A DNA stretch of 64,000 nucleotides from assembly GCA_038087875.1 (NCBI GenBank), contig CM075990.1, forward strand, positions 18,230,001 to 18,294,000. Direction: 5' to 3'. Positions 46,401 through 64,000 of the stretch are shown here, one piece after another. Source of the DNA: Malacoraja senta. Lineage: Eukaryota. A program made the position numbers and the translations under genes. The stretch's first letter is position 1, and each line of letters begins with the position of its first letter. The notes beneath the pieces were generated by a model. The model was given only the letters and a program-made list of their open reading frames with translations. It searched no databases and was not told where the DNA came from.

Positions 46401-49400
46401 TTTGGGTTTCACCCTCCTGACTCCATTTGAATCTTTTCTGTGGCCTGCTCCTTCTGCGGTTTTGATTTGCCTGAGTGATGAAGCCCGTGTCACTGTAAAG
46501 GTTAGGTTGTGATTTATCGGACAGTGGGACAACATGCCCTCTGGTGCTTATTGATCTCCCCCTGGGGATTCCTTTTCACTGTGTACTGTCACTTGGTATT
46601 TGGCCCACGGTTTCATCACCCTTGTCCAAATCTATTTGCCTTACACTTGCCCTTCCATAGATTTGTGGGAGTCAGTCAGGATCCACCCTAGGTTTGAGTT
46701 TACTGTTATTCTCCATCATCCCCCCTTTGGTTTGGGTTTCACCCTCCTGACTCCATTTGAATCTTTTCTGTGGCCTGCTCCTTCTGCGGTTTTGATTTGC
46801 CTGAGTGATGAAGCCCGTGTCACTGTAAAGGTTAGGTTGTGATTTATCGGACAGTGGGACAACATGCCCTCTGGTGCTTATTGATCTCCCCCTGGGGATT
46901 CCTTTTCACTGTGTACTGTCACTTGGTATTTGGCCCACGGTTTCATCACCCTTGTCCAAATCTATTTGCCTTACACTTGCCCTTCCATAGATTTGTGGGA
47001 GTCAGTCAGGATCCACCCTAGGTTTGAGTTTACTGTTATTCTCCATCATCCCCCCTTTGGTTTGGGTTTCACCCTCCTGACTCCATTTGAATCTTTTCTG
47101 TGGCCTGCTCCTTCTGCGGTTTTGATTTGCCTGAGTGATGAAGCCCGTGTCACTGTAAAGGTTAGGTTGTGATTTATCGGACAGTGGGACAACATGCCCT
47201 CTGGTGCTTATTGATCTCCCCCTGGGGATTCCTTTTCACTGTGTACTGTCACTTGGTATTTGGCCCACGGTTTCATCACCCTTGTCCAAATCTATTTGCC
47301 TTACACTTGCCCTTCCATAGATTTGTGGGAGTCAGTCAGGATCCACCCTAGGTTTGAGTTTACTGTTATTCTCCATCATCCCCCCTTTGGTTTGGGTTTC
47401 ACCCTCCTGACTCCATTTGAATCTTTTCTGTGGCCTGCTCCTTCTGCGGTTTTGATTTGCCTGAGTGATGAAGCCCGTGTCACTGTAAAGGTTAGGTTGT
47501 GATTTATCGGACAGTGGGACAACATGCCCTCTGGTGCTTATTGATCTCCCCCTGGGGATTCCTTTTCACTGTGTACTGTCACTTGGTATTTGGCCCACGG
47601 TTTCATCACCCTTGTCCAAATCTATTTGCCTTACACTTGCCCTTCCATAGATTTGTGGGAGTCAGTCAGGATCCACCCTAGGTTTGAGTTTACTGTTATT
47701 CTCCATCATCCCCCCTTTGGTTTGGGTTTCACCCTCCTGACTCCATTTGAATCTTTTCTGTGGCCTGCTCCTTCTGCGGTTTTGATTTGCCTGAGTGATG
47801 AAGCCCGTGTCACTGTAAAGGTTAGGTTGTGATTTATCGGACAGTGGGACAACATGCCCTCTGGTGCTTATTGATCTCCCCCTGGGGATTCCTTTTCACT
47901 GTGTACTGTCACTTGGTATTTGGCCCACGGTTTCATCACCCTTGTCCAAATCTATTTGCCTTACACTTGCCCTTCCATAGATTTGTGGGAGTCAGTCAGG
48001 ATCCACCCTAGGTTTGAGTTTACTGTTATTCTCCATCATCCCCCCTTTGGTTTGGGTTTCACCCTCCTGACTCCATTTGAATCTTTTCTGTGGCCTGCTC
48101 CTTCTGCGGTTTTGATTTGCCTGAGTGATGAAGCCCGTGTCACTGTAAAGGTTAGGTTGTGATTTATCGGACAGTGGGACAACATGCCCTCTGGTGCTTA
48201 TTGATCTCCCCCTGGGGATTCCTTTTCACTGTGTACTGTCACTTGGTATTTGGCCCACGGTTTCATCACCCTTGTCCAAATCTATTTGCCTTACACTTGC
48301 CCTTCCATAGATTTGTGGGAGTCAGTCAGGATCCACCCTAGGTTTGAGTTTACTGTTATTCTCCATCATCCCCCCTTTGGTTTGGGTTTCACCCTCCTGA
48401 CTCCATTTGAATCTTTTCTGTGGCCTGCTCCTTCTGCGGTTTTGATTTGCCTGAGTGATGAAGCCCGTGTCACTGTAAAGGTTAGGTTGTGATTTATCGG
48501 ACAGTGGGACAACATGCCCTCTGGTGCTTATTGATCTCCCCCTGGGGATTCCTTTTCACTGTGTACTGTCACTTGGTATTTGGCCCACGGTTTCATCACC
48601 CTTGTCCAAATCTATTTGCCTTACACTTGCCCTTCCATAGATTTGTGGGAGTCAGTCAGGATCCACCCTAGGTTTGAGTTTACTGTTATTCTCCATCATC
48701 CCCCCTTTGGTTTGGGTTTCACCCTCCTGACTCCATTTGAATCTTTTCTGTGGCCTGCTCCTTCTGCGGTTTTGATTTGCCTGAGTGATGAAGCCCGTGT
48801 CACTGTAAAGGTTAGGTTGTGATTTATCGGACAGTGGGACAACATGCCCTCTGGTGCTTATTGATCTCCCCCTGGGGATTCCTTTTCACTGTGTACTGTC
48901 ACTTGGTATTTGGCCCACGGTTTCATCACCCTTGTCCAAATCTATTTGCCTTACACTTGCCCTTCCATAGATTTGTGGGAGTCAGTCAGGATCCACCCTA
49001 GGTTTGAGTTTACTGTTATTCTCCATCATCCCCCCTTTGGTTTGGGTTTCACCCTCCTGACTCCATTTGAATCTTTTCTGTGGCCTGCTCCTTCTGCGGT
49101 TTTGATTTGCCTGAGTGATGAAGCCCGTGTCACTGTAAAGGTTAGGTTGTGATTTATCGGACAGTGGGACAACATGCCCTCTGGTGCTTATTGATCTCCC
49201 CCTGGGGATTCCTTTTCACTGTGTACTGTCACTTGGTATTTGGCCCACGGTTTCATCACCCTTGTCCAAATCTATTTGCCTTACACTTGCCCTTCCATAG
49301 ATTTGTGGGAGTCAGTCAGGATCCACCCTAGGTTTGAGTTTACTGTTATTCTCCATCATCCCCCCTTTGGTTTGGGTTTCACCCTCCTGACTCCATTTGA

Positions 49401-52400
49401 ATCTTTTCTGTGGCCTGCTCCTTCTGCGGTTTTGATTTGCCTGAGTGATGAAGCCCGTGTCACTGTAAAGGTTAGGTTGTGATTTATCGGACAGTGGGAC
49501 AACATGCCCTCTGGTGCTTATTGATCTCCCCCTGGGGATTCCTTTTCACTGTGTACTGTCACTTGGTATTTGGCCCACGGTTTCATCACCCTTGTCCAAA
49601 TCTATTTGCCTTACACTTGCCCTTCCATAGATTTGTGGGAGTCAGTCAGGATCCACCCTAGGTTTGAGTTTACTGTTATTCTCCATCATCCCCCCTTTGG
49701 TTTGGGTTTCACCCTCCTGACTCCATTTGAATCTTTTCTGTGGCCTGCTCCTTCTGCGGTTTTGATTTGCCTGAGTGATGAAGCCCGTGTCACTGTAAAG
49801 GTTAGGTTGTGATTTATCGGACAGTGGGACAACATGCCCTCTGGTGCTTATTGATCTCCCCCTGGGGATTCCTTTTCACTGTGTACTGTCACTTGGTATT
49901 TGGCCCACGGTTTCATCACCCTTGTCCAAATCTATTTGCCTTACACTTGCCCTTCCATAGATTTGTGGGAGTCAGTCAGGATCCACCCTAGGTTTGAGTT
50001 TACTGTTATTCTCCATCATCCCCCCTTTGGTTTGGGTTTCACCCTCCTGACTCCATTTGAATCTTTTCTGTGGCCTGCTCCTTCTGCGGTTTTGATTTGC
50101 CTGAGTGATGAAGCCCGTGTCACTGTAAAGGTTAGGTTGTGATTTATCGGACAGTGGGACAACATGCCCTCTGGTGCTTATTGATCTCCCCCTGGGGATT
50201 CCTTTTCACTGTGTACTGTCACTTGGTATTTGGCCCACGGTTTCATCACCCTTGTCCAAATCTATTTGCCTTACACTTGCCCTTCCATAGATTTGTGGGA
50301 GTCAGTCAGGATCCACCCTAGGTTTGAGTTTACTGTTATTCTCCATCATCCCCCCTTTGGTTTGGGTTTCACCCTCCTGACTCCATTTGAATCTTTTCTG
50401 TGGCCTGCTCCTTCTGCGGTTTTGATTTGCCTGAGTGATGAAGCCCGTGTCACTGTAAAGGTTAGGTTGTGATTTATCGGACAGTGGGACAACATGCCCT
50501 CTGGTGCTTATTGATCTCCCCCTGGGGATTCCTTTTCACTGTGTACTGTCACTTGGTATTTGGCCCACGGTTTCATCACCCTTGTCCAAATCTATTTGCC
50601 TTACACTTGCCCTTCCATAGATTTGTGGGAGTCAGTCAGGATCCACCCTAGGTTTGAGTTTACTGTTATTCTCCATCATCCCCCCTTTGGTTTGGGTTTC
50701 ACCCTCCTGACTCCATTTGAATCTTTTCTGTGGCCTGCTCCTTCTGCGGTTTTGATTTGCCTGAGTGATGAAGCCCGTGTCACTGTAAAGGTTAGGTTGT
50801 GATTTATCGGACAGTGGGACAACATGCCCTCTGGTGCTTATTGATCTCCCCCTGGGGATTCCTTTTCACTGTGTACTGTCACTTGGTATTTGGCCCACGG
50901 TTTCATCACCCTTGTCCAAATCTATTTGCCTTACACTTGCCCTTCCATAGATTTGTGGGAGTCAGTCAGGATCCACCCTAGGTTTGAGTTTACTGTTATT
51001 CTCCATCATCCCCCCTTTGGTTTGGGTTTCACCCTCCTGACTCCATTTGAATCTTTTCTGTGGCCTGCTCCTTCTGCGGTTTTGATTTGCCTGAGTGATG
51101 AAGCCCGTGTCACTGTAAAGGTTAGGTTGTGATTTATCGGACAGTGGGACAACATGCCCTCTGGTGCTTATTGATCTCCCCCTGGGGATTCCTTTTCACT
51201 GTGTACTGTCACTTGGTATTTGGCCCACGGTTTCATCACCCTTGTCCAAATCTATTTGCCTTACACTTGCCCTTCCATAGATTTGTGGGAGTCAGTCAGG
51301 ATCCACCCTAGGTTTGAGTTTACTGTTATTCTCCATCATCCCCCCTTTGGTTTGGGTTTCACCCTCCTGACTCCATTTGAATCTTTTCTGTGGCCTGCTC
51401 CTTCTGCGGTTTTGATTTGCCTGAGTGATGAAGCCCGTGTCACTGTAAAGGTTAGGTTGTGATTTATCGGACAGTGGGACAACATGCCCTCTGGTGCTTA
51501 TTGATCTCCCCCTGGGGATTCCTTTTCACTGTGTACTGTCACTTGGTATTTGGCCCACGGTTTCATCACCCTTGTCCAAATCTATTTGCCTTACACTTGC
51601 CCTTCCATAGATTTGTGGGAGTCAGTCAGGATCCACCCTAGGTTTGAGTTTACTGTTATTCTCCATCATCCCCCCTTTGGTTTGGGTTTCACCCTCCTGA
51701 CTCCATTTGAATCTTTTCTGTGGCCTGCTCCTTCTGCGGTTTTGATTTGCCTGAGTGATGAAGCCCGTGTCACTGTAAAGGTTAGGTTGTGATTTATCGG
51801 ACAGTGGGACAACATGCCCTCTGGTGCTTATTGATCTCCCCCTGGGGATTCCTTTTCACTGTGTACTGTCACTTGGTATTTGGCCCACGGTTTCATCACC
51901 CTTGTCCAAATCTATTTGCCTTACACTTGCCCTTCCATAGATTTGTGGGAGTCAGTCAGGATCCACCCTAGGTTTGAGTTTACTGTTATTCTCCATCATC
52001 CCCCCTTTGGTTTGGGTTTCACCCTCCTGACTCCATTTGAATCTTTTCTGTGGCCTGCTCCTTCTGCGGTTTTGATTTGCCTGAGTGATGAAGCCCGTGT
52101 CACTGTAAAGGTTAGGTTGTGATTTATCGGACAGTGGGACAACATGCCCTCTGGTGCTTATTGATCTCCCCCTGGGGATTCCTTTTCACTGTGTACTGTC
52201 ACTTGGTATTTGGCCCACGGTTTCATCACCCTTGTCCAAATCTATTTGCCTTACACTTGCCCTTCCATAGATTTGTGGGAGTCAGTCAGGATCCACCCTA
52301 GGTTTGAGTTTACTGTTATTCTCCATCATCCCCCCTTTGGTTTGGGTTTCACCCTCCTGACTCCATTTGAATCTTTTCTGTGGCCTGCTCCTTCTGCGGT

Positions 52401-53960
52401 TTTGATTTGCCTGAGTGATGAAGCCCGTGTCACTGTAAAGGTTAGGTTGTGATTTATCGGACAGTGGGACAACATGCCCTCTGGTGCTTATTGATCTCCC
52501 CCTGGGGATTCCTTTTCACTGTGTACTGTCACTTGGTATTTGGCCCACGGTTTCATCACCCTTGTCCAAATCTATTTGCCTTACACTTGCCCTTCCATAG
52601 ATTTGTGGGAGTCAGTCAGGATCCACCCTAGGTTTGAGTTTACTGTTATTCTCCATCATCCCCCCTTTGGTTTGGGTTTCACCCTCCTGACTCCATTTGA
52701 ATCTTTTCTGTGGCCTGCTCCTTCTGCGGTTTTGATTTGCCTGAGTGATGAAGCCCGTGTCACTGTAAAGGTTAGGTTGTGATTTATCGGACAGTGGGAC
52801 AACATGCCCTCTGGTGCTTATTGATCTCCCCCTGGGGATTCCTTTTCACTGTGTACTGTCACTTGGTATTTGGCCCACGGTTTCATCACCCTTGTCCAAA
52901 TCTATTTGCCTTACACTTGCCCTTCCATAGATTTGTGGGAGTCAGTCAGGATCCACCCTAGGTTTGAGTTTACTGTTATTCTCCATCATCCCCCCTTTGG
53001 TTTGGGTTTCACCCTCCTGACTCCATTTGAATCTTTTCTGTGGCCTGCTCCTTCTGCGGTTTTGATTTGCCTGAGTGATGAAGCCCGTGTCACTGTAAAG
53101 GTTAGGTTGTGATTTATCGGACAGTGGGACAACATGCCCTCTGGTGCTTATTGATCTCCCCCTGGGGATTCCTTTTCACTGTGTACTGTCACTTGGTATT
53201 TGGCCCACGGTTTCATCACCCTTGTCCAAATCTATTTGCCTTACACTTGCCCTTCCATAGATTTGTGGGAGTCAGTCAGGATCCACCCTAGGTTTGAGTT
53301 TACTGTTATTCTCCATCATCCCCCCTTTGGTTTGGGTTTCACCCTCCTGACTCCATTTGAATCTTTTCTGTGGCCTGCTCCTTCTGCGGTTTTGATTTGC
53401 CTGAGTGATGAAGCCCGTGTCACTGTAAAGGTTAGGTTGTGATTTATCGGACAGTGGGACAACATGCCCTCTGGTGCTTATTGATCTCCCCCTGGGGATT
53501 CCTTTTCACTGTGTACTGTCACTTGGTATTTGGCCCACGGTTTCATCACCCTTGTCCAAATCTATTTGCCTTACACTTGCCCTTCCATAGATTTGTGGGA
53601 GTCAGTCAGGATCCACCCTAGGTTTGAGTTTACTGTTATTCTCCATCATCCCCCCTTTGGTTTGGGTTTCACCCTCCTGACTCCATTTGAATCTTTTCTG
53701 TGGCCTGCTCCTTCTGCGGTTTTGATTTGCCTGAGTGATGAAGCCCGTGTCACTGTAAAGGTTAGGTTGTGATTTATCGGACAGTGGGACAACATGCCCT
53801 CTGGTGCTTATTGATCTCCCCCTGGGGATTCCTTTTCACTGTGTACTGTCACTTGGTATTTGGCCCACGGTTTCATCACCCTTGTCCAAATCTATTTGCC
53901 TTACACTTGCCCTTCCATAGATTTGTGGGAGTCAGTCAGGATCCACCCTAGGTTTGAGTT
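43401..53960. repeat. 32 tandem copies of a 330-bp unit derived from the PLE region immediately downstream of the ORF2 stop codon
   Basis: The unit TACTGTTATT...GGTTTGAGTT equals 21938-22267. The period is exactly 330 (10560/330 = 32) and I saw no differences between copies. Confidence 0.97.
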
Positions 53961-54760
53961 TATGCTAGATTTAGGCCATTAGGCTCTTTTGTCTGTAGCG
54001 CTTCTATCCATAGCCTCTCTGCTCTCTTGCGTCTCCCTGTTGTCCAATTTATGTTTGTTTCCAGACCCATGATCTCTACGGACTGGATCCCATGTTGCTG
54101 GAAGTGTCTGCTAATGGGTATGGATTGGTCTCCCCTTGTGATGTTGCTGAGGTGTCCTGTCAGCCTGACTCTCATGCTGTTACCTGTTTCGCCTATGTAC
54201 AGTAAGTTGCACTCTTTACATCTAATTGCATACACCACATTCTTTTGCTCACAGGTTATCCTCTGTGCTATCTGGCCTTTCTTCCCTGTTACACTGTTCT
54301 CTATATTTTTGGCTATTACTAAATGGGTGCAGGCTCCACACCGTCTCTGCCCACAGTCTGGGTCTGTGTGTAGACTTGTACTGACCAGGATGTCCTTCAG
54401 ATTTTTAGCCCTCTTGAATGCTGACATTACCTTGTACCCCTTTAGTGTGGCAAATCCCCTTTGGAATTGTTCAAAACGGCCCTTGACTATTTTGTGGGCC
54501 TGGACTGCCATGTTGCCATATCTTGTGATTAGTGGCAAGTTCAATGTCGTCCCCGGCCTAGGTCTGGGTGCTTGTATGCTACTTAGAAAATCTGACTTAA
54601 TGTATCTTAATTTCCTTTTGCAGTAACCCCTCTGTCTGAGGGCGGTGAATAGGGTGCTTGTGGCCTGGTTGAAATCCTCCTCCCTAGTACATATACGGTG
54701 GAAGCGGGTCAGTTGTGACTTGACGATGACTGGGCAACGATTTTCCAGTTTCGCTATCAC
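53960..54760 (-). pseudogene. 5'-deleted ORF2: RT C-terminal region, Cys knuckle and GIY-YIG endonuclease
   Basis: Matches ORF2 from IVKSQL onward (one L>V change). The first 11 codons come from ribozyme sequence and the start codon is GTG. Confidence 0.85.
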
Positions 54761-55520
54761 TGTAGCTTCGTCAGGGAAAGAGATCTAGTCCTAGCCGGTT
54801 AGGGTTTTTAAAGGGTAGGTTGATGCTCCTCCCTTTCTGGGTGGAGCTTGCCATGTGTTGGGTCCTAGGACCGGTCACTTTGGTTGGGCACACCCTGTTT
54901 CTTGTTTGGACTGGTTAGCCCTCTTCCTTTGTTGTGTTAGTTACCACATGTCTCTGGTATCTTGTATCCTTTATTGCTAATGTTTTCAGCCTCTGTTGAT
55001 CAATAAATGTGCAAAAATCTCTTGTCCACTATTATGTTCTGCAAGTATTATCATGGGGTGAGTTGTGCTTTGCCTATCCTGTCTGACCATCCTTTGGCTC
55101 CCTCTCTGGTCCTCCCTGTCTCCCTATCCTAGTTTTAGAGTGTCCCTCACTTCAATCCTATGATTATTCGAGCCCACTCTATTTCGGTTTGTACTGTTAT
55201 TCTCCATCATCCCCCCTTTGGTTTGGGTTTCACCCTCCTGACTCCATTTGAATCTTTTCTGTGGCCTGCTCCTTCTGCGGTTTTGATTTGCCTGAGTGAT
55301 GAAGCCCGTGTCACTGTAAAGGTTAGGTTGTGATTTATCGGACAGTGGGACAACATGCCCTCTGGTGCTTATTGATCTCCCCCTGGGGATTCCTTTTCAC
55401 TGTGTACTGTCACTTGGTATTTGGCCCACGGTTTCATCACCCTTGTCCAAATCTATTTGCCTTACACTTGCCCTTCCATAGATTTGTGGGAGTCAGTCAG
55501 GATCCACCCTAGGTTTGAGT

Positions 55521-56321
55521 TTATGCTAGATTTAGGCCATTAGGCTCTTTTGTCTGTAGCGCTTCTATCCATAGCCTCTCTGCTCTCTTGCGTCTCCCTG
55601 TTGTCCAATTTATGTTTGTTTCCAGACCCATGATCTCTAGGGACTGGATCCCATGTTGCTGGAAGTGTCTGCTAATGGGTATGGATTGGTCTCCCCTTGT
55701 GATGTTGCTGAGGTGTCCTGTCAGCCTGACTCTCATGCTGTTACCTGTTTCGCCTATGTACAGTAAGTTGCACTCTTTACATCTAATTGCATACACCACA
55801 TTCTTTTGCTCACAGGTTATCCTCTGTGCTATCTGGCCTTTCTTCCCTGTTACACTGTTCTCTATATTTTTGGCTATTACTAAATGGGTGCAGGCTCCAC
55901 ACCGTCTCTGCCCACAGTCTGGGTCTGTGTGTAGACTTGTACTGACCAGGATGTCCTTCAGATTTTTAGCCCTCTTGAATGCTGACATTACCTTGTACCC
56001 CTTTAGTGTGGCAAATCCCCTTTGGAATTGTTCAAAACGGCCCTTGACTATTTTGTGGGCCTGGACTGCCATGTTGCCATATCTTGTGATTAGTGGCAAG
56101 TTCAATGTCGTCCCCGGCCTAGGTCTGGGTGCTTGTATGCTACTTAGAAAATCTGACTTAATGTATCTTAATTTCCTTTTGCAGTAACCCCTCTGTCTGA
56201 GGGCGGTGAATAGGGTGCTTGTGGCCTGGTTGAAATCCTCCTCCCTAGTACATATACGGTGGAAGCGGGTCAGTTGTGACTTGACGATGACTGGGCAACG
56301 ATTTTCCAGTTTCGCTATCAC
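55521..56321 (-). pseudogene. 5'-deleted ORF2 (endonuclease-containing fragment)
   Basis: Same 266-codon frame as 53960-54760. Confidence 0.85.
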
Positions 56322-57081
56322 TGTAGCTTCGTCAGGGAAAGAGATCTAGTCCTAGCCGGTTAGGGTTTTTAAAGGGTAGGTTGATGCTCCTCCCTTTCTG
56401 GGTGGAGCTTGCCATGTGTTGGGTCCTAGGACCGGTCACTTTGGTTGGGCACACCCTGTTTCTTGTTTGGACTGGGTAGCCCTCTTCCTTTGTTGTGTTA
56501 GTTACCACATGTCTCTGGTATCTTGTATCCTTTATTGCTAATGTTTTCAGCCTCTGTTGATCAATAAATGTGCAAAAATCTCTTGTCCACTATTATGTTC
56601 TGCAAGTATTATCATGGGGTGAGTTGTGCTTTGCCTATCCTGTCTGACCATCCTTTGGCTCCCTCTCTGGTCCTCCCTGTCTCCCTATCCTAGTTTTAGA
56701 GTGTCCCTCACTTCAATCCTATGATTATTCGAGCCCACTCTATTTCGGTTTGTACTGTTATTCTCCATCATCCCCCCTTTGTTTTGGGTTTCACCCTCCT
56801 GACTCCATTTGAATCTTTTCTGTGGCCTGCTCCTTCTGCGGTTTTGATTTGCCTGAGTGATGAAGCCCGTGTCACTGTAAAGGTTAGGTTGTGATTTATC
56901 GGACAGTGGGACAACATGCCCTCTGGTGCTTATTGATCTCCCCCTGGGGATTCCTTTTCACTGTGTACTGTCACTTGGTATTTGGCCCACGGTTTCATCA
57001 CCCTTGTCCAAATCTATTTGCCTTACACTTGCCCTTCCATAGATTTGTGGGAGTCAGTCAGGATCCACCCTAGGTTTGAGT

Positions 57082-57882
57082 TTATGCTAGATTTAGGCCA
57101 TTAGGCTCTTTTGTCTGTAGCGCTTCTATCCATAGCCTCTCTGCTCTCTTGCGTCTCCCTGTTGTCCAATTTATGTTTGTTTCCAGACCCATGATCTCTA
57201 GGGACTGGATCCCATGTTGCTGGAAGTGTCTGCTAATGGGTATGGATTGGTCTCCCCTTGTGATGTTGCTGAGGTGTCCTGTCAGCCTGACTCTCATGCT
57301 GTTACCTGTTTCGCCTATGTACAGTAAGTTGCACTCTTTACATCTAATTGCATACACCACATTCTTTTGCTCACAGGTTATCCTCTGTGCTATCTGGCCT
57401 TTCTTCCCTGTTACACTGTTCTCTATATTTTTGGCTATTACTAAATGGGTGCAGGCTCCACACCGTCTCTGCCCACAGTCTGGGTCTGTGTGTAGACTTG
57501 TACTGACCAGGATGTCCTTCAGATTTTTAGCCCTCTTGAATGCTGACATTACCTTGTACCCCTTTAGTGTGGCAAATCCCCTTTGGAATTGTTCAAAACG
57601 GCCCTTGACTATTTTGTGGGCCTGGACTGCCATGTTGCCATATCTTGTGATTAGTGGCAAGTTCAATGTCGTCCCCGGCCTAGGTCTGGGTGCTTGTATG
57701 CTACTTAGAAAATCTGACTTAATGTATCTTAATTTCCTTTTGCAGTAACCCCTCTGTCTGAGGGCGGTGAATAGGGTGCTTGTGGCCTGGTTGAAATCCT
57801 CCTCCCTAGTACATATACGGTGGAAGCGGGTCAGTTGTGACTTGACGATGACTGGGCAACGATTTTCCAGTTTCGCTATCAC
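57082..57882 (-). pseudogene. 5'-deleted ORF2 (endonuclease-containing fragment)
   Basis: Same 266-codon frame, period 1561. Confidence 0.85.
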
Positions 57883-58642
57883 TGTAGCTTCGTCAGGGAA
57901 AGAGATCTAGTCCTAGCCGGTTAGGGTTTTTAAAGGGTAGGTTGATGCTCCTCCCTTTCTGGGTGGAGCTTGCCATGTGTTGGGTCCTAGGACCGGTCAC
58001 TTTGGTTGGGCACACCCTGTTTCTTGTTTGGACTGGTTAGCCCTCTTCCTTTGTTGTGTTAGTTACCACATGTCTCTGGTATCTTGTATCCTTTATTGCT
58101 AATGTTTTCAGCCTCTGTTGATCAATAAATGTGCAAAAATCTCTTGTCCACTATTATGTTCTGCAAGTATTATCATGGGGTGAGTTGTGCTTTGCCTATC
58201 CTGTCTGACCATCCTTTGGCTCCCTCTCTGGTCCTCCCTGTCTCCCTATCCTAGTTTTAGAGTGTCCCTCACTTCAATCCTATGATTATTCGAGCCCACT
58301 CTATTTCGGTTTGTACTGTTATTCTCCATCATCCCCCCTTTGGTTTGGGTTTCACCCTCCTGACTCCATTTGAATCTTTTCTGTGGCCTGCTCCTTCTGC
58401 GGTTTTGATTTGCCTGAGTGATGAAGCCCGTGTCACTGTAAAGGTTAGGTTGTGATTTATCGGACAGTGGGACAACATGCCCTCTGGTGCTTATTGATCT
58501 CCCCCTGGGGATTCCTTTTCACTGTGTACTGTCACTTGGTATTTGGCCCACGGTTTCATCACCCTTGTCCAAATCTATTTGCCTTACACTTGCCCTTCCA
58601 TAGATTTGTGGGAGTCAGTCAGGATCCACCCTAGGTTTGAGT

Positions 58643-59443
58643 TTATGCTAGATTTAGGCCATTAGGCTCTTTTGTCTGTAGCGCTTCTATCCATAGCCTC
58701 TCTGCTCTCTTGCGTCTCCCTGTTGTCCAATTTATGTTTGTTTCCAGACCCATGATCTCTAGGGACTGGATCCCATGTTGCTGGAAGTGTCTGCTAATGG
58801 GTATGGATTGGTCTCCCCTTGTGATGTTGCTGAGGTGTCCTGTCAGCCTGACTCTCATGCTGTTACCTGTTTCGCCTATGTACAGTAAGTTGCACTCTTT
58901 ACATCTAATTGCATACACCACATTCTTTTGCTCACAGGTTATCCTTTGTGCTATCTGGCCTTTCTTCCCTGTTACACTGTTCTCTATATTTTTGGCTATT
59001 ACTAAATGGGTGCAGGCTCCACACCGTCTCTGCCCACAGTCTGGGTCTGTGTGTAGACTTGTACTGACCAGGATGTCCTTCAGATTTTTAGCCCTCTTGA
59101 ATGCTGACATTACCTTGTACCCCTTTAGTGTGGCAAATCCCCTTTGGAATTGTTCAAAACGGCCCTTGACTATTTTGTGGGCCTGGACTGCCATGTTGCC
59201 ATATCTTGTGATTAGTGGCAAGTTCAATGTCGTCCCCGGCCTAGGTCTGGGTGCTTGTATGCTACTTAGAAAATCTGACTTAATGTATCTTAATTTCCTT
59301 TTGCAGTAACCCCTCTGTCTGAGGGCGGTGAATAGGGTGCTTGTGGCCTGGTTGAAATCCTCCTCCCTAGTACATATACGGTGGAAGCGGGTCAGTTGTG
59401 ACTTGACGATGACTGGGCAACGATTTTCCAGTTTCGCTATCAC
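58643..59443 (-). pseudogene. 5'-deleted ORF2 (endonuclease-containing fragment)
   Basis: Same 266-codon frame, period 1561. Confidence 0.85.
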
Positions 59444-60203
59444 TGTAGCTTCGTCAGGGAAAGAGATCTAGTCCTAGCCGGTTAGGGTTTTTAAAGGGTA
59501 GGTTGATGCTCCTCCCTTTCTGGGTGGAGCTTGCCATGTGTTGGGTCCTAGGACCGGTCACTTTGGTTGGGCACACCCTGTTTCTTGTTTGGACTGGTTA
59601 GCCCTCTTCCTTTGTTGTGTTAGTTACCACATGTCTCTGGTATCTTGTATCCTTTATTGCTAATGTTTTCAGCCTCTGTTGATCAATAAATGTGCAAAAA
59701 TCTCTTGTCCACTATTATGTTCTGCAAGTATTATCATGGGGTGAGTTGTGCTTTGCCTATCCTGTCTGACCATCCTTTGGCTCCCTCTCTGGTCCTCCCT
59801 GTCTCCCTATCCTAGTTTTAGAGTGTCCCTCACTTCAATCCTATGATTATTCGAGCCCACTCTATTTCGGTTTGTACTGTTATTCTCCATCATCCCCCCT
59901 TTGGTTTGGGTTTCACCCTCCTGACTCCATTTGAATCTTTTCTGTGGCCTGCTCCTTCTGCGGTTTTGATTTGCCTGAGTGATGAAGCCCGTGTCACTGT
60001 AAAGGTTAGGTTGTGATTTATCGGACAGTGGGACAACATGCCCTCTGGTGCTTATTGATCTCCCCCTGGGGATTCCTTTTCACTGTGTACTGTCACTTGG
60101 TATTTGGCCCACGGTTTCATCACCCTTGTCCAAATCTATTTGCCTTACACTTGCCCTTCCATAGATTTGTGGGAGTCAGTCAGGATCCACCCTAGGTTTG
60201 AGT

Positions 60204-61004
60204 TTATGCTAGATTTAGGCCATTAGGCTCTTTTGTCTGTAGCGCTTCTATCCATAGCCTCTCTGCTCTCTTGCGTCTCCCTGTTGTCCAATTTATGTTT
60301 GTTTCCAGACCCATGATCTCTAGGGACTGGATCCCATGTTGCTGGAAGTGTCTGCTAATGGGTATGGATTGGTCTCCCCTTGTGATGTTGCTGAGGTGTC
60401 CTGTCAGCCTGACTCTCATGCTGTTACCTGTTTCGCCTATGTACAGTAAGTTGCACTCTTTACATCTAATTGCATACACCACATTCTTTTGCTCACAGGT
60501 TATCCTCTGTGCTATCTGGCCTTTCTTCCCTGTTACACTGTTCTCTATATTTTTGGCTATTACTAAATGGGTGCAGGCTCCACACCGTCTCTGCCCACAG
60601 TCTGGGTCTGTGTGTAGACTTGTACTGACCAGGATGTCCTTCAGATTTTTAGCCCTCTTGAATGCTGACATTACCTTGTACCCCTTTAGTGTGGCAAATC
60701 CCCTTTGGAATTGTTCAAAACGGCCCTTGACTATTTTGTGGGCCTGGACTGCCATGTTGCCATATCTTGTGATTAGTGGCAAGTTCAATGTCGTCCCCGG
60801 CCTAGGTCTGGGTGCTTGTATGCTACTTAGAAAATCTGACTTAATGTATCTTAATTTCCTTTTGCAGTAACCCCTCTGTCTGAGGGCGGTGAATAGGGTG
60901 CTTGTGGCCTGGTTGAAATCCTCCTCCCTAGTACATATACGGTGGAAGCGGGTCAGTTGTGACTTGACGATGACTGGGCAACGATTTTCCAGTTTCGCTA
61001 TCAC
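60204..61004 (-). pseudogene. 5'-deleted ORF2 (endonuclease-containing fragment)
   Basis: Same 266-codon frame, period 1561. Confidence 0.85.
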
Positions 61005-61764
61005 TGTAGCTTCGTCAGGGAAAGAGATCTAGTCCTAGCCGGTTAGGGTTTTTAAAGGGTAGGTTGATGCTCCTCCCTTTCTGGGTGGAGCTTGCCATGT
61101 GTTGGGTCCTAGGACCGGTCACTTTGGTTGGGCACACCCTGTTTCTTGTTTGGACTGGTTAGCCCTCTTCCTTTGTTGTGTTAGTTACCACATGTCTCTG
61201 GTATCTTGTATCCTTTATTGCTAATGTTTTCAGCCTCTGTTGATCAATAAATGTGCAAAAATCTCTTGTCCACTATTATGTTCTGCAAGTATTATCATGG
61301 GGTGAGTTGTGCTTTGCCTATCCTGTCTGACCATCCTTTGGCTCCCTCTCTGGTCCTCCCTGTCTCCCTATCCTAGTTTTAGAGTGTCCCTCACTTCAAT
61401 CCTATGATTATTCGAGCCCACTCTATTTCGGTTTGTACTGTTATTCTCCATCATCCCCCCTTTGGTTTGGGTTTCACCCTCCTGACTCCATTTGAATCTT
61501 TTCTGTGGCCTGCTCCTTCTGCGGTTTTGATTTGCCTGAGTGATGAAGCCCGTGTCACTGTAAAGGTTAGGTTGTGATTTATCGGACAGTGGGACAACAT
61601 GCCCTCTGGTGCTTATTGATCTCCCCCTGGGGATTCCTTTTCACTGTGTACTGTCACTTGGTATTTGGCCCACGGTTTCATCACCCTTGTCCAAATCTAT
61701 TTGCCTTACACTTGCCCTTCCATAGATTTGTGGGAGTCAGTCAGGATCCACCCTAGGTTTGAGT

Positions 61765-62565
61765 TTATGCTAGATTTAGGCCATTAGGCTCTTTTGTCTG
61801 TAGCGCTTCTATCCATAGCCTCTCTGCTCTCTTGCGTCTCCCTGTTGTCCAATTTATGTTTGTTTCCAGACCCATGATCTCTAGGGACTGGATCCCATGT
61901 TGCTGGAAGTGTCTGCTAATGGGTATGGATTGGTCTCCCCTTGTGATGTTGCTGAGGTGTCCTGTCAGCCTGACTCTCATGCTGTTACCTGTTTCGCCTA
62001 TGTACAGTAAGTTGCACTCTTTACATCTAATTGCATACACCACATTCTTTTGCTCACAGGTTATCCTCTGTGCTATCTGGCCTTTCTTCCCTGTTACACT
62101 GTTCTCTATATTTTTGGCTATTACTAAATGGGTGCAGGCTCCACACCGTCTCTGCCCACAGTCTGGGTCTGTGTGTAGACTTGTACTGACCAGGATGTCC
62201 TTCAGATTTTTAGCCCTCTTGAATGCTGACATTACCTTGTACCCCTTTAGTGTGGCAAATCCCCTTTGGAATTGTTCAAAACGGCCCTTGACTATTTTGT
62301 GGGCCTGGACTGCCATGTTGCCATATCTTGTGATTAGTGGCAAGTTCAATGTCGTCCCCGGCCTAGGTCTGGGTGCTTGTATGCTACTTAGAAAATCGGA
62401 CTTAATGTATCTTAATTTCCTTTTGCAGTAACCCCTCTGTCTGAGGGCGGTGAATAGGGTGCTTGTGGCCTGGTTGAAATCCTCCTCCCTAATACATATA
62501 CGGTGGAAGCGGGTCAGTTGTGACTTGACGATGACTGGGCAACGATTTTCCAGTTTCGCTATCAC
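61765..62565 (-). pseudogene. 5'-deleted ORF2 (endonuclease-containing fragment)
   Basis: Same frame with one T>I change (ICIREE). Confidence 0.85.
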
Positions 62566-63319
62566 TGTAGCTTCGTCAGGGAAAGAGATCTAGTCCTAGC
62601 CGGTTTTTAAAGGGTAGGTTGATGCTCCTCCCTTTCTGGGTGGAGCTTGCCATGTGTTGGGTCCTAGGACCGGTCACTTTGGTTGGGCACACCCTGTTTC
62701 TTGTTTGGACTGGTTAGCCCTCTTCCTTTGTTGTGTTAGTTACCACATGTCTCTGGTATCTTGTATCCTTTATTGCTAATGTTTTCAGCCTCTGTTGATC
62801 AATAAATGTGCAAAAATCTCTTGTCCACTATTATGTTCTGCAAGTATTATCATGGGGTGAGTTGTGCTTTGCCTATCCTGTCTGACCATCCTTTGGCTCC
62901 CTCTCTGGTCCTCCCTGTCTCCCTATCCTAGTTTTAGAGTGTCCCTCACTTCAATCCTATGATTATTCGAGCCCACTCTATTTCGGTTTGTACTGTTATT
63001 CTCCATCATCCCCCCTTTGGTTTGGGTTTCACCCTCCTGACTCCATTTGAATCTTTTCTGTGGCCTGCTCCTTCTGCGGTTTTGATTTGCCTGAGTGATG
63101 AAGCCCGTGTCACTGTAAAGGTTAGGTTGTGATTTATCGGACAGTGGGACAACATGCCCTCTGGTGCTTATTGATCTCCCCCTGGGGATTCCTTTTCACT
63201 GTGTACTGTCACTTGGTATTTGGCCCACGGTTTCATCACCCTTGTCCAAATCTATTTGCCTTACACTTGCCCTTCCATAGATTTGTGGGAGTCAGTCAGG
63301 ATCCACCCTAGGTTTGAGT

Positions 63320-64000
63320 TTATGCTAGATTTAGGCCATTAGGCTCTTTTGTCTGTAGCGCTTCTATCCATAGCCTCTCTGCTCTCTTGCGTCTCCCTGT
63401 TGTCCAATTTATGTTTGTTTCCAGACCCATGATCTCTAGGGACTGGATCCCATGTTGCTGGAAGTGTCTGCTAATGGGTATGGATTGGTCTCCCCTTGTG
63501 ATGTTGCTGAGGTGTCCTGTCAGCCTGACTCTCATGCTGTTACCTGTTTCGCCTATGTACAGTAAGTTGCACTCTTTACATCTAATTGCATACACCACAT
63601 TCTTTTGCTCACAGGTTATCCTCTGTGCTATCTGGCCTTTCTTCCCTGTTACACTGTTCTCTATATTTTTGGCTATTACTAAATGGGTGCAGGCTCCACA
63701 CCGTCTCTGCCCACAGTCTGGGTCTGTGTGTAGACTTGTACTGACCAGGATGTCCTTCAGATTTTTAGCCCTCTTGAATGCTGACATTACCTTGTACCCC
63801 TTTAGTGTGGCAAATCCCCTTTGGAATTGTTCAAAACGGCCCTTGACTATTTTGTGGGCCTGGACTGCCATGTTGCCATATCTTGTGATTAGTGGCAAGT
63901 TCAATGTCGTCCCCGGCCTAGGTCTGGGTGCTTGTATGCTACTTAGAAAATCTGACTTAATGTATCTTAATTTCCTTTTGCAGTAACCCCTCTGTCTGAG
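63320..64000 (-). pseudogene. ORF2 3' fragment cut by the window edge
   Basis: GIY-YIG coding region matching the other copies. It cannot be seen whether it continues as a derivative or as a full ORF2. Confidence 0.7.

Follow-up and report, generated by a model that had tools for sequence, protein, structure and literature searches.

The window, a 64,000-nt stretch of Malacoraja senta DNA, contains an element that is, judged by its motifs, Penelope-like and of the Neptune/Nematis type. A full 7467-bp unit (copy A, 14600–22066, minus strand) lies in tandem with a truncated, TTAGGG-capped copy B (22067–27145, minus strand), and the two copies together are flanked by TTAGGG repeat tracts. ORF2 (14800–16674, minus strand; 624 aa from the first ATG, 759 aa from stop to stop) comprises a predicted reverse transcriptase (RT), a Cys linker, and, at its C-terminus, a GIY-YIG endonuclease. 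Specifically, GIY-YIG is detected over the cut-off (E 4e-6), and RVT_1 (E 2e-6) scores 27.8 bits, slightly below the cut-off of 29.6. Among 8000 sequences scored, 2335 are homologues at E<=1e-50 and have the identical domain set, and the named homologues, at 50–54%, are fish proteins. The ORF2 translation carries the CX2-5CxxC linker and the endonuclease CCHH motif of the Neptune definition in PMC8557442, a motif set also present in Nematis. The presence of RT and C-terminal GIY-YIG in one ORF, and of tandem or partial-tandem copies with a hammerhead in each repeat, places the element among the endonuclease-bearing (EN+) Penelope-like elements (PLEs). Intact ORF2s in many copies mark the family as very young. 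Upstream of the first ATG, the reading frame of ORF2 stays open for a further 135 codons and runs into the end of ORF1, so that frameshifting or an alternative start is possible.

ORF1 (16998–18776, minus strand; 592 aa) gave no match in Pfam and PDB sequence searches; the likeness of its C-terminal part to SGNH/GDSL hydrolases comes from language-model features only (0.94) and is a lead. The unit further contains four ~600-bp G/T-rich repeats (19302–21760), which were excluded from junction mapping. These repeats contain ~112-bp subrepeats, their number differs among copies, and many telomere-capped element ends lie inside them. Near-identical relatives occur in public runs of other organisms (X3–X24; share 0.1–0.25), among which the relative in run X14 spans all 30 bins, and one protein (P0003) is 95% identical.

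An intact type I hammerhead motif is located at 18914–18976 (minus strand), with the predicted cut between 18922 (C17) and 18921, and a second intact copy lies at 26379–26441 (minus strand, C17 at 26387). Stem I pairs 18976–18969 with 18921–18914 (8 bp), the core CUGACGA occupies 18968–18962 and is accompanied by one extra A, stem II has 4 bp, GAAA lies at 18946–18943, and stem III has 5 bp. The motif thus presents the CUGANGA core, GAAA, the NUH triplet, and stems I–III of a type I hammerhead, and it is the sole match to the CUGANGA...GAAA pattern on either strand of 14600–22400. The 67-nt motif alone folds as a hammerhead in RNA folding; in longer contexts stems I and III are mostly off the predicted fold (pair probabilities 0.01–0.6), and the fold z-score is only -0.66. 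An Rfam search of 18700–19300 returned no hammerhead at the gathering threshold or at E<=10, and no related locus was found in metagenome contigs. An older, dispersed subfamily, ~90% identical (L108–L119, L048, L058, L059, L064, L065), also has intact hammerheads. In the comparison of the young with the older subfamily, motif differences are limited to N7 and loop II, with no compensatory pair.

The right part of the window is occupied by a tandem array of a 1561-bp derivative (53613–64000, minus strand), which continues to about G000:C14:18312960. Each unit is composed of 21793–23034 plus 18922–19238 and therefore has two junctions. Junction J1 (15567|18922; 54720–54739, plus strand) lies at 54727/54728 and recurs in the window at 56288, 57849, 59410, 60971, and 62532, all six positions agreeing exactly with the original prediction; 12 further copies lie past the window end, and the resulting 18 copies are one event, as had been proposed for the six. 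The left flank of J1 equals 14600–15567 with 0–2 mismatches over the final 200 nt, in line with the ORF2 origin predicted for it. The right flank begins at 18922, which had been named as the C of GUC on the RNA strand and coincides with C17 of the hammerhead. The predicted absence of microhomology and of GT-AG likewise holds, with an overlap of 0, no inserted bases, and 3354 skipped nt that on the RNA strand start with GG and end with GT. Spliceosomal intron loss is ruled out as the origin of J1, because the skipped segment lacks GT-AG ends, and a microhomology deletion is ruled out by the zero overlap; the lack of microhomology is by itself not significant (P 0.13).

The second junction, J2 (19238|21793; 55037–55056, plus strand, at 55046/55047), is present in every 1561-bp unit, also with an overlap of 0. 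Between J1 and J2 lies the leader piece (54728–55046, minus strand; equal to 18922–19238), which retains the 5′ part of the hammerhead up to GUC. In all 1561-bp units, ORF2 sequence stands in place of the stem I 3′ strand, so that consecutive units contain no complete hammerhead, and with this strand lost the unit as a monomer would be unable to cut itself. An independent array of 1443-bp units, built on the same plan with two joins each (15490|18922 and 19194|21788), lies at G000:C14:18349070–18360150 (L036–L037). A transcription start region may be indicated by the donor ends 19194, 19233, and 19238, and a 3′ end region by 21788–21805. A 200-N scaffold gap (41790–41989) separates the 1561-bp array from the intact copies. 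Telomere tracts on this contig lie ~200 kb inside the contig end and the strand switches beyond the array; the local order on C14 may thus be a result of scaffolding.

To survey other joins at the same base, we searched the genome with an exact 27-mer starting at 18922 and obtained 86 matches, of which 48 keep the normal flank of the hammerhead and 38 are rearranged; two more rearranged copies carrying a variant bring the latter to 40. These 40 copies represent nine distinct joins fitting 18922, all with different left ends: 15567 (18 copies), 15490 (8), 15370 (7), 15390 (2), 16688, 17384, 18646, 19233, and 14931. The joins are located on contigs C14, C897, C5485, C4451, and C2976, and their acceptor pieces belong to at least three haplotypes or sub-lineages. 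Overlap is 0 in seven of the nine joins, and the overlaps of 1 nt and 4 nt in the other two are compatible with 18922; inserted bases are found in none (0/9). The reciprocal end is also represented: on contig C5539, three copies in tandem end at 18921 and are joined to 21883, exactly so in 2/3, the third being shorter by one C within a C-run. The independent junctions that the original prediction had suggested looking for are thus present, and they support its reading of J1 as a fossil of ribozyme cleavage in vivo, a cleavage that we infer from the joins. Its term "deletion" is misleading; the join is exact, and is best understood as the fusion of a constant RNA 3′ end with a piece of the element whose 5′ truncation varies.

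Further anchors (upstream, downstream, telomere start, and protein) were used against bias towards 18922, and breakpoints were mapped in 749 kb (37 blocks) outside the ~600-bp repeats. Not counted as junctions were 56 ends of segments that enter the 600-bp repeats, the edges of blocks, and local indels of <150 nt. About 21 large rearrangement joins were mapped, of which 9 fit 18922 and ~12 lie elsewhere; no large join in the 749 kb has its right side in 18923–19137. For one preset base among 5002, the probability is 9e-29 for 9/20 and 1e-21 for 7/20. The cluster of joins at 18922 is real and well above chance, and chance as its cause is ruled out (P ~1e-28). No copy of the older subfamily (0/16) is broken or joined at the cut. 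In run X14, one join links 14827 to 18822, a position 100 nt from the cut.

The same counts bear on the idea that J1 is a fragile-site DNA deletion or an assembly artefact that matches the cut by accident. The region is repetitive and telomeric, with a scaffold gap nearby and lower-quality stretches, and four public runs, searched as contigs only, show no 18922 join among the matches listed. Against this stand nine different joins on five contigs in three sub-lineages, without microhomology and at the P value above, one of which (19233|18922) is a duplication rather than a deletion. We regard this explanation as the most improbable of those considered.

The element also makes contact with telomere repeats at a defined position. 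Nearly all telomere-to-element starts fall at one internal site (14600–14605, plus strand, and equally 22067–22072), where 6 nt, GGTTAG, are common to the element and the telomere repeat; the genome search gave 49 exact telomere-to-14600 starts. From this pattern the element appears to be an EN+ PLE specific for vertebrate telomere repeats, and none of this kind appeared among the papers listed by a literature search. In 100 sites examined out of 107, none was a telomere-to-18922 start, indicating that the cut end does not serve for priming; it is fused to element sequence alone, either while cDNA is being made or earlier. Similarly, the mappable part has 10 distinct ends with a telomere cap, and not one of them stops at 18921.

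A second single-base acceptor hotspot lies at 21939, with joins from 14801, 14804, and 14796 that give 330-, 333-, and 325-bp arrays. These three distinct arrays are located at 43401–53962 in the window (21939–22268 repeated, join 14801|21939), from G000:C3792:19560 onward, and at G000:C3840:123001–126436; run X2 adds two loose ends at 21939 (14815 and 14823). In the RNA, the site corresponds to a U^A bond, the hammerhead pattern has no match there, and Rfam has none at 21740–22300. A join hotspot thus does not require a ribozyme. This observation lends weight to a reading without any cleavage, in which the fold of the hammerhead would determine where the RT starts anew inside the RNA, the match to C17 being a matter of structure. 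The element uses its fixed sites 14600 and 21939 without a ribozyme, and PAc, according to PMC11167929, initiates internally at defined sites. Such re-initiation would, however, require placement exactly at C17, it leaves the reciprocal 18921 end unexplained, and telomere primers never use 18922; we consider it improbable.

The left breaks at the 18922 joins are U^N in 6/9 (P 0.002) and U^A in 4/9 (P 0.0008), a bias that was noticed post hoc and is equally a T|A bias at the DNA level. U^A is known as the most labile RNA bond. At the DNA level, a resemblance to the TTAGGG repeat's T|A step is seen at several donor ends, as expected if an endonuclease nick in an older genomic copy, at a T|A-like site, primed insertion from the ribozyme-cut 3′ end, with the arrays arising at the DNA level. 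PAc is described as nicking AT-rich DNA, its own sequence included (PMC11167929). Yet the main target of such nicks, the telomere repeats, has 0 starts at 18922 vs 49 at 14600, and we hold this route to be less probable still than internal re-initiation.

Taken jointly, the ligation, template-jump, and nick models make it very probable that ribozyme-cut ends are used in vivo. The original prediction had left two routes side by side, an RT jump or a ligation before reverse transcription; we favour the ligation route and retain the jump as its main rival. In the jump model, the RT stops on or runs off a broken RNA and moves onto a linear RNA at the 3′ end that the ribozyme has made, the arrays being formed by repeated jumps on that same RNA or by unequal DNA exchange. 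A fixed acceptor end with variable donor ends is equally expected from it, and the 1561- and 1443-bp units read naturally as two jumps, first to a short leader and then to a 3′ end near 21790. Non-LTR RTs do jump in vitro, according to PMC8857657, which nonetheless traces L1 chimeras to ligation beforehand. Furthermore, inserted bases are absent from all nine joins, and telomere primers leave the 18922 end unused (0 vs 49).

The arrays themselves bear on this choice. The identical join recurs in all four arrays that have a second pass, and no copy passes its own left break; the other five arrays stop or reach a contig edge before a second pass. If the RT jumped onto a new, full-length RNA, its next pass would be expected to extend beyond the donor break, which is seen in 0/4 arrays. 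In the 15390 array, both passes carry one variant absent from all other copies, and, as a point against the circle, the passes are unlike in the 600-bp repeat block. On contig C897, passes in one block differ by 3 substitutions and duplicated blocks by 0. Recurrence, private variants, and the C897 passes agree with one template having been copied again and again.

Most unit variants are likewise private (13/16 in the 1561-bp array and 10/10 in the 1443-bp array), in agreement with this reading. The 48 intact hammerhead flanks are expected from re-ligated circles and uncut multimers alike and do not discriminate between them. Exchange at the DNA level inside the arrays is proven, and recurrence is thus not unique to circles. 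Specifically, the join of the 330-bp array is found in unit 13 of the 1561-bp array, two variants of the latter are common to two non-adjacent units, blocks on contig C897 are duplicated, and the units of the 330-bp array are identical (31/31). These observations speak against a pure RNA account, and the DNA-level amplification seen in the arrays counts in favour of the jump model. On balance we judge a template jump to be possible but unlikely.

We give an even chance to the reading in which J1 records a cut RNA end ligated to the 5′ end of a broken element RNA, yielding a shortened circle that was copied repeatedly. The starting material is present: head-to-tail 7467-bp units lie in TTAGGG repeats with one hammerhead each. 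Read-through transcripts would be cut after GUC, giving a 2′,3′-cyclic-phosphate 3′ end (18922) and a 5′-OH end (18921). A host RtcB-type ligase would usually rejoin the matching ends into a seamless unit, and would sometimes join the cyclic-phosphate end to a 5′-OH from an internal RNA break (for J1, the U^A bond at 15567). Telomere DNA would prime cDNA at the internal site 14600, where the pattern of starts is seen, and rolling-circle copying by the RT of the element would produce tandem copies of the join. Later duplication at the DNA level altered some arrays. No ribozyme explains the second join in the 1561- and 1443-bp units (to 21793 and 21788). The ribozyme-free hotspot at 21939, the fold of stems I and III in longer contexts, the older-subfamily copies without a break at the cut, and the dispensable hammerhead of PAc count against this reading as well. 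More tentatively, and at somewhat less than even chances, the normal template may be a circle made by hammerhead cutting and RtcB ligation, from which telomere-primed rolling-circle reverse transcription builds tandem arrays; new satellites at telomeres (330, 1443, 1561, 3925, and 4506 bp) would then arise from mis-ligated circles in a single step.

The joins resemble the U6/LINE-1 chimeras described by Moldovan et al. 2019 (PMC6789731), in which RtcB joins the U6 cyclic-phosphate end to variably 5′-truncated L1 RNA. Both have a fixed RNA 3′ end and a variable 5′-truncated partner, lack inserted bases and microhomology, and are found in the genome. In contrast to those chimeras, the predicted source of the end here is the hammerhead of the element itself, the two partners belong to one and the same element, the joins recur in tandem, and ligation by RtcB would be the presumed step. 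For PLE hammerheads, Cervera and De la Peña 2014 (PMC4209133) proposed cleavage, ligation into circles, and more-than-unit cDNA, and noted a lack of evidence in vivo. Like theirs, the present motif is type I, has one additional base between 9 and 10.1, and occurs once in each repeat of head-to-tail tandems. Unlike their minimal metazoan motifs, it has a full 5-bp stem III, and here aberrant genomic joins mark the cut.

PAc, the Anolis Poseidon element studied by Frangieh et al. 2024 (PMC11167929), likewise has RT with C-terminal GIY-YIG, tandem copies, an internal cDNA start, and a hammerhead, which was dispensable in vitro and had no RNA-seq reads ending at its cut. PAc is described as lacking primer homology and as using AT-rich nicks, whereas the present element shares 6 nt with TTAGGG at its starts and its cut site is a join hotspot. 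With Neptune-clade PLEs, whose hammerhead function is called "still unclear" (Craig et al. 2021, PMC8557442, and preprint), it shares the C-terminal GIY-YIG with CCHH, the CX2-5CxxC linker, insertion into simple repeats, and the hammerhead, a likeness to the clade drawn by motifs alone; it differs in its telomere-repeat location and in a separate ORF1 with an SGNH-like end. Retrozyme RNA is cut by its hammerhead and circularised by RtcB in vitro (PMC7229834). The 1561-bp array resembles non-LTR retrozymes as a short, non-coding, PLE-derived tandem array (PMC7229834; bioRxiv 10.64898/2026.07.22.740005), but those keep the whole hammerhead and the 1561-bp unit has lost the stem I 3′ strand. Athena/Coprina elements and Terminons (PMC6431247) also combine G-rich telomere attachment via a short complementary stretch, telomere-capped chains, and a hammerhead; their RT protein has no endonuclease and their ribozyme lies beside the telomere-pairing stretch, whereas here the two are >3 kb apart.

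Hammerheads occur, to our knowledge, in nearly all canonical Penelope-like elements. We found no report of PLE genomic joins at a hammerhead cut among the papers that the literature searches listed, supplements and Arkhipova et al. 2017 being outside the scope of the search. That nine joins converge on a single base at the predicted cut is evidence from the genome for the existence of cut ends and for their entry into retrotransposition, and it bears on the open question of what role the hammerhead has in PLEs. If the circular-template reading is true, these nine joins would provide the circular-template model of PLEs with its first footprint in vivo. Counting joins at C17 offers a cheap test for any PLE family, and the joins described here provide defined substrates to tell ligation from template jumping. 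Finally, the finding suggests a route by which PLE tandem arrays and telomeric satellites originate.
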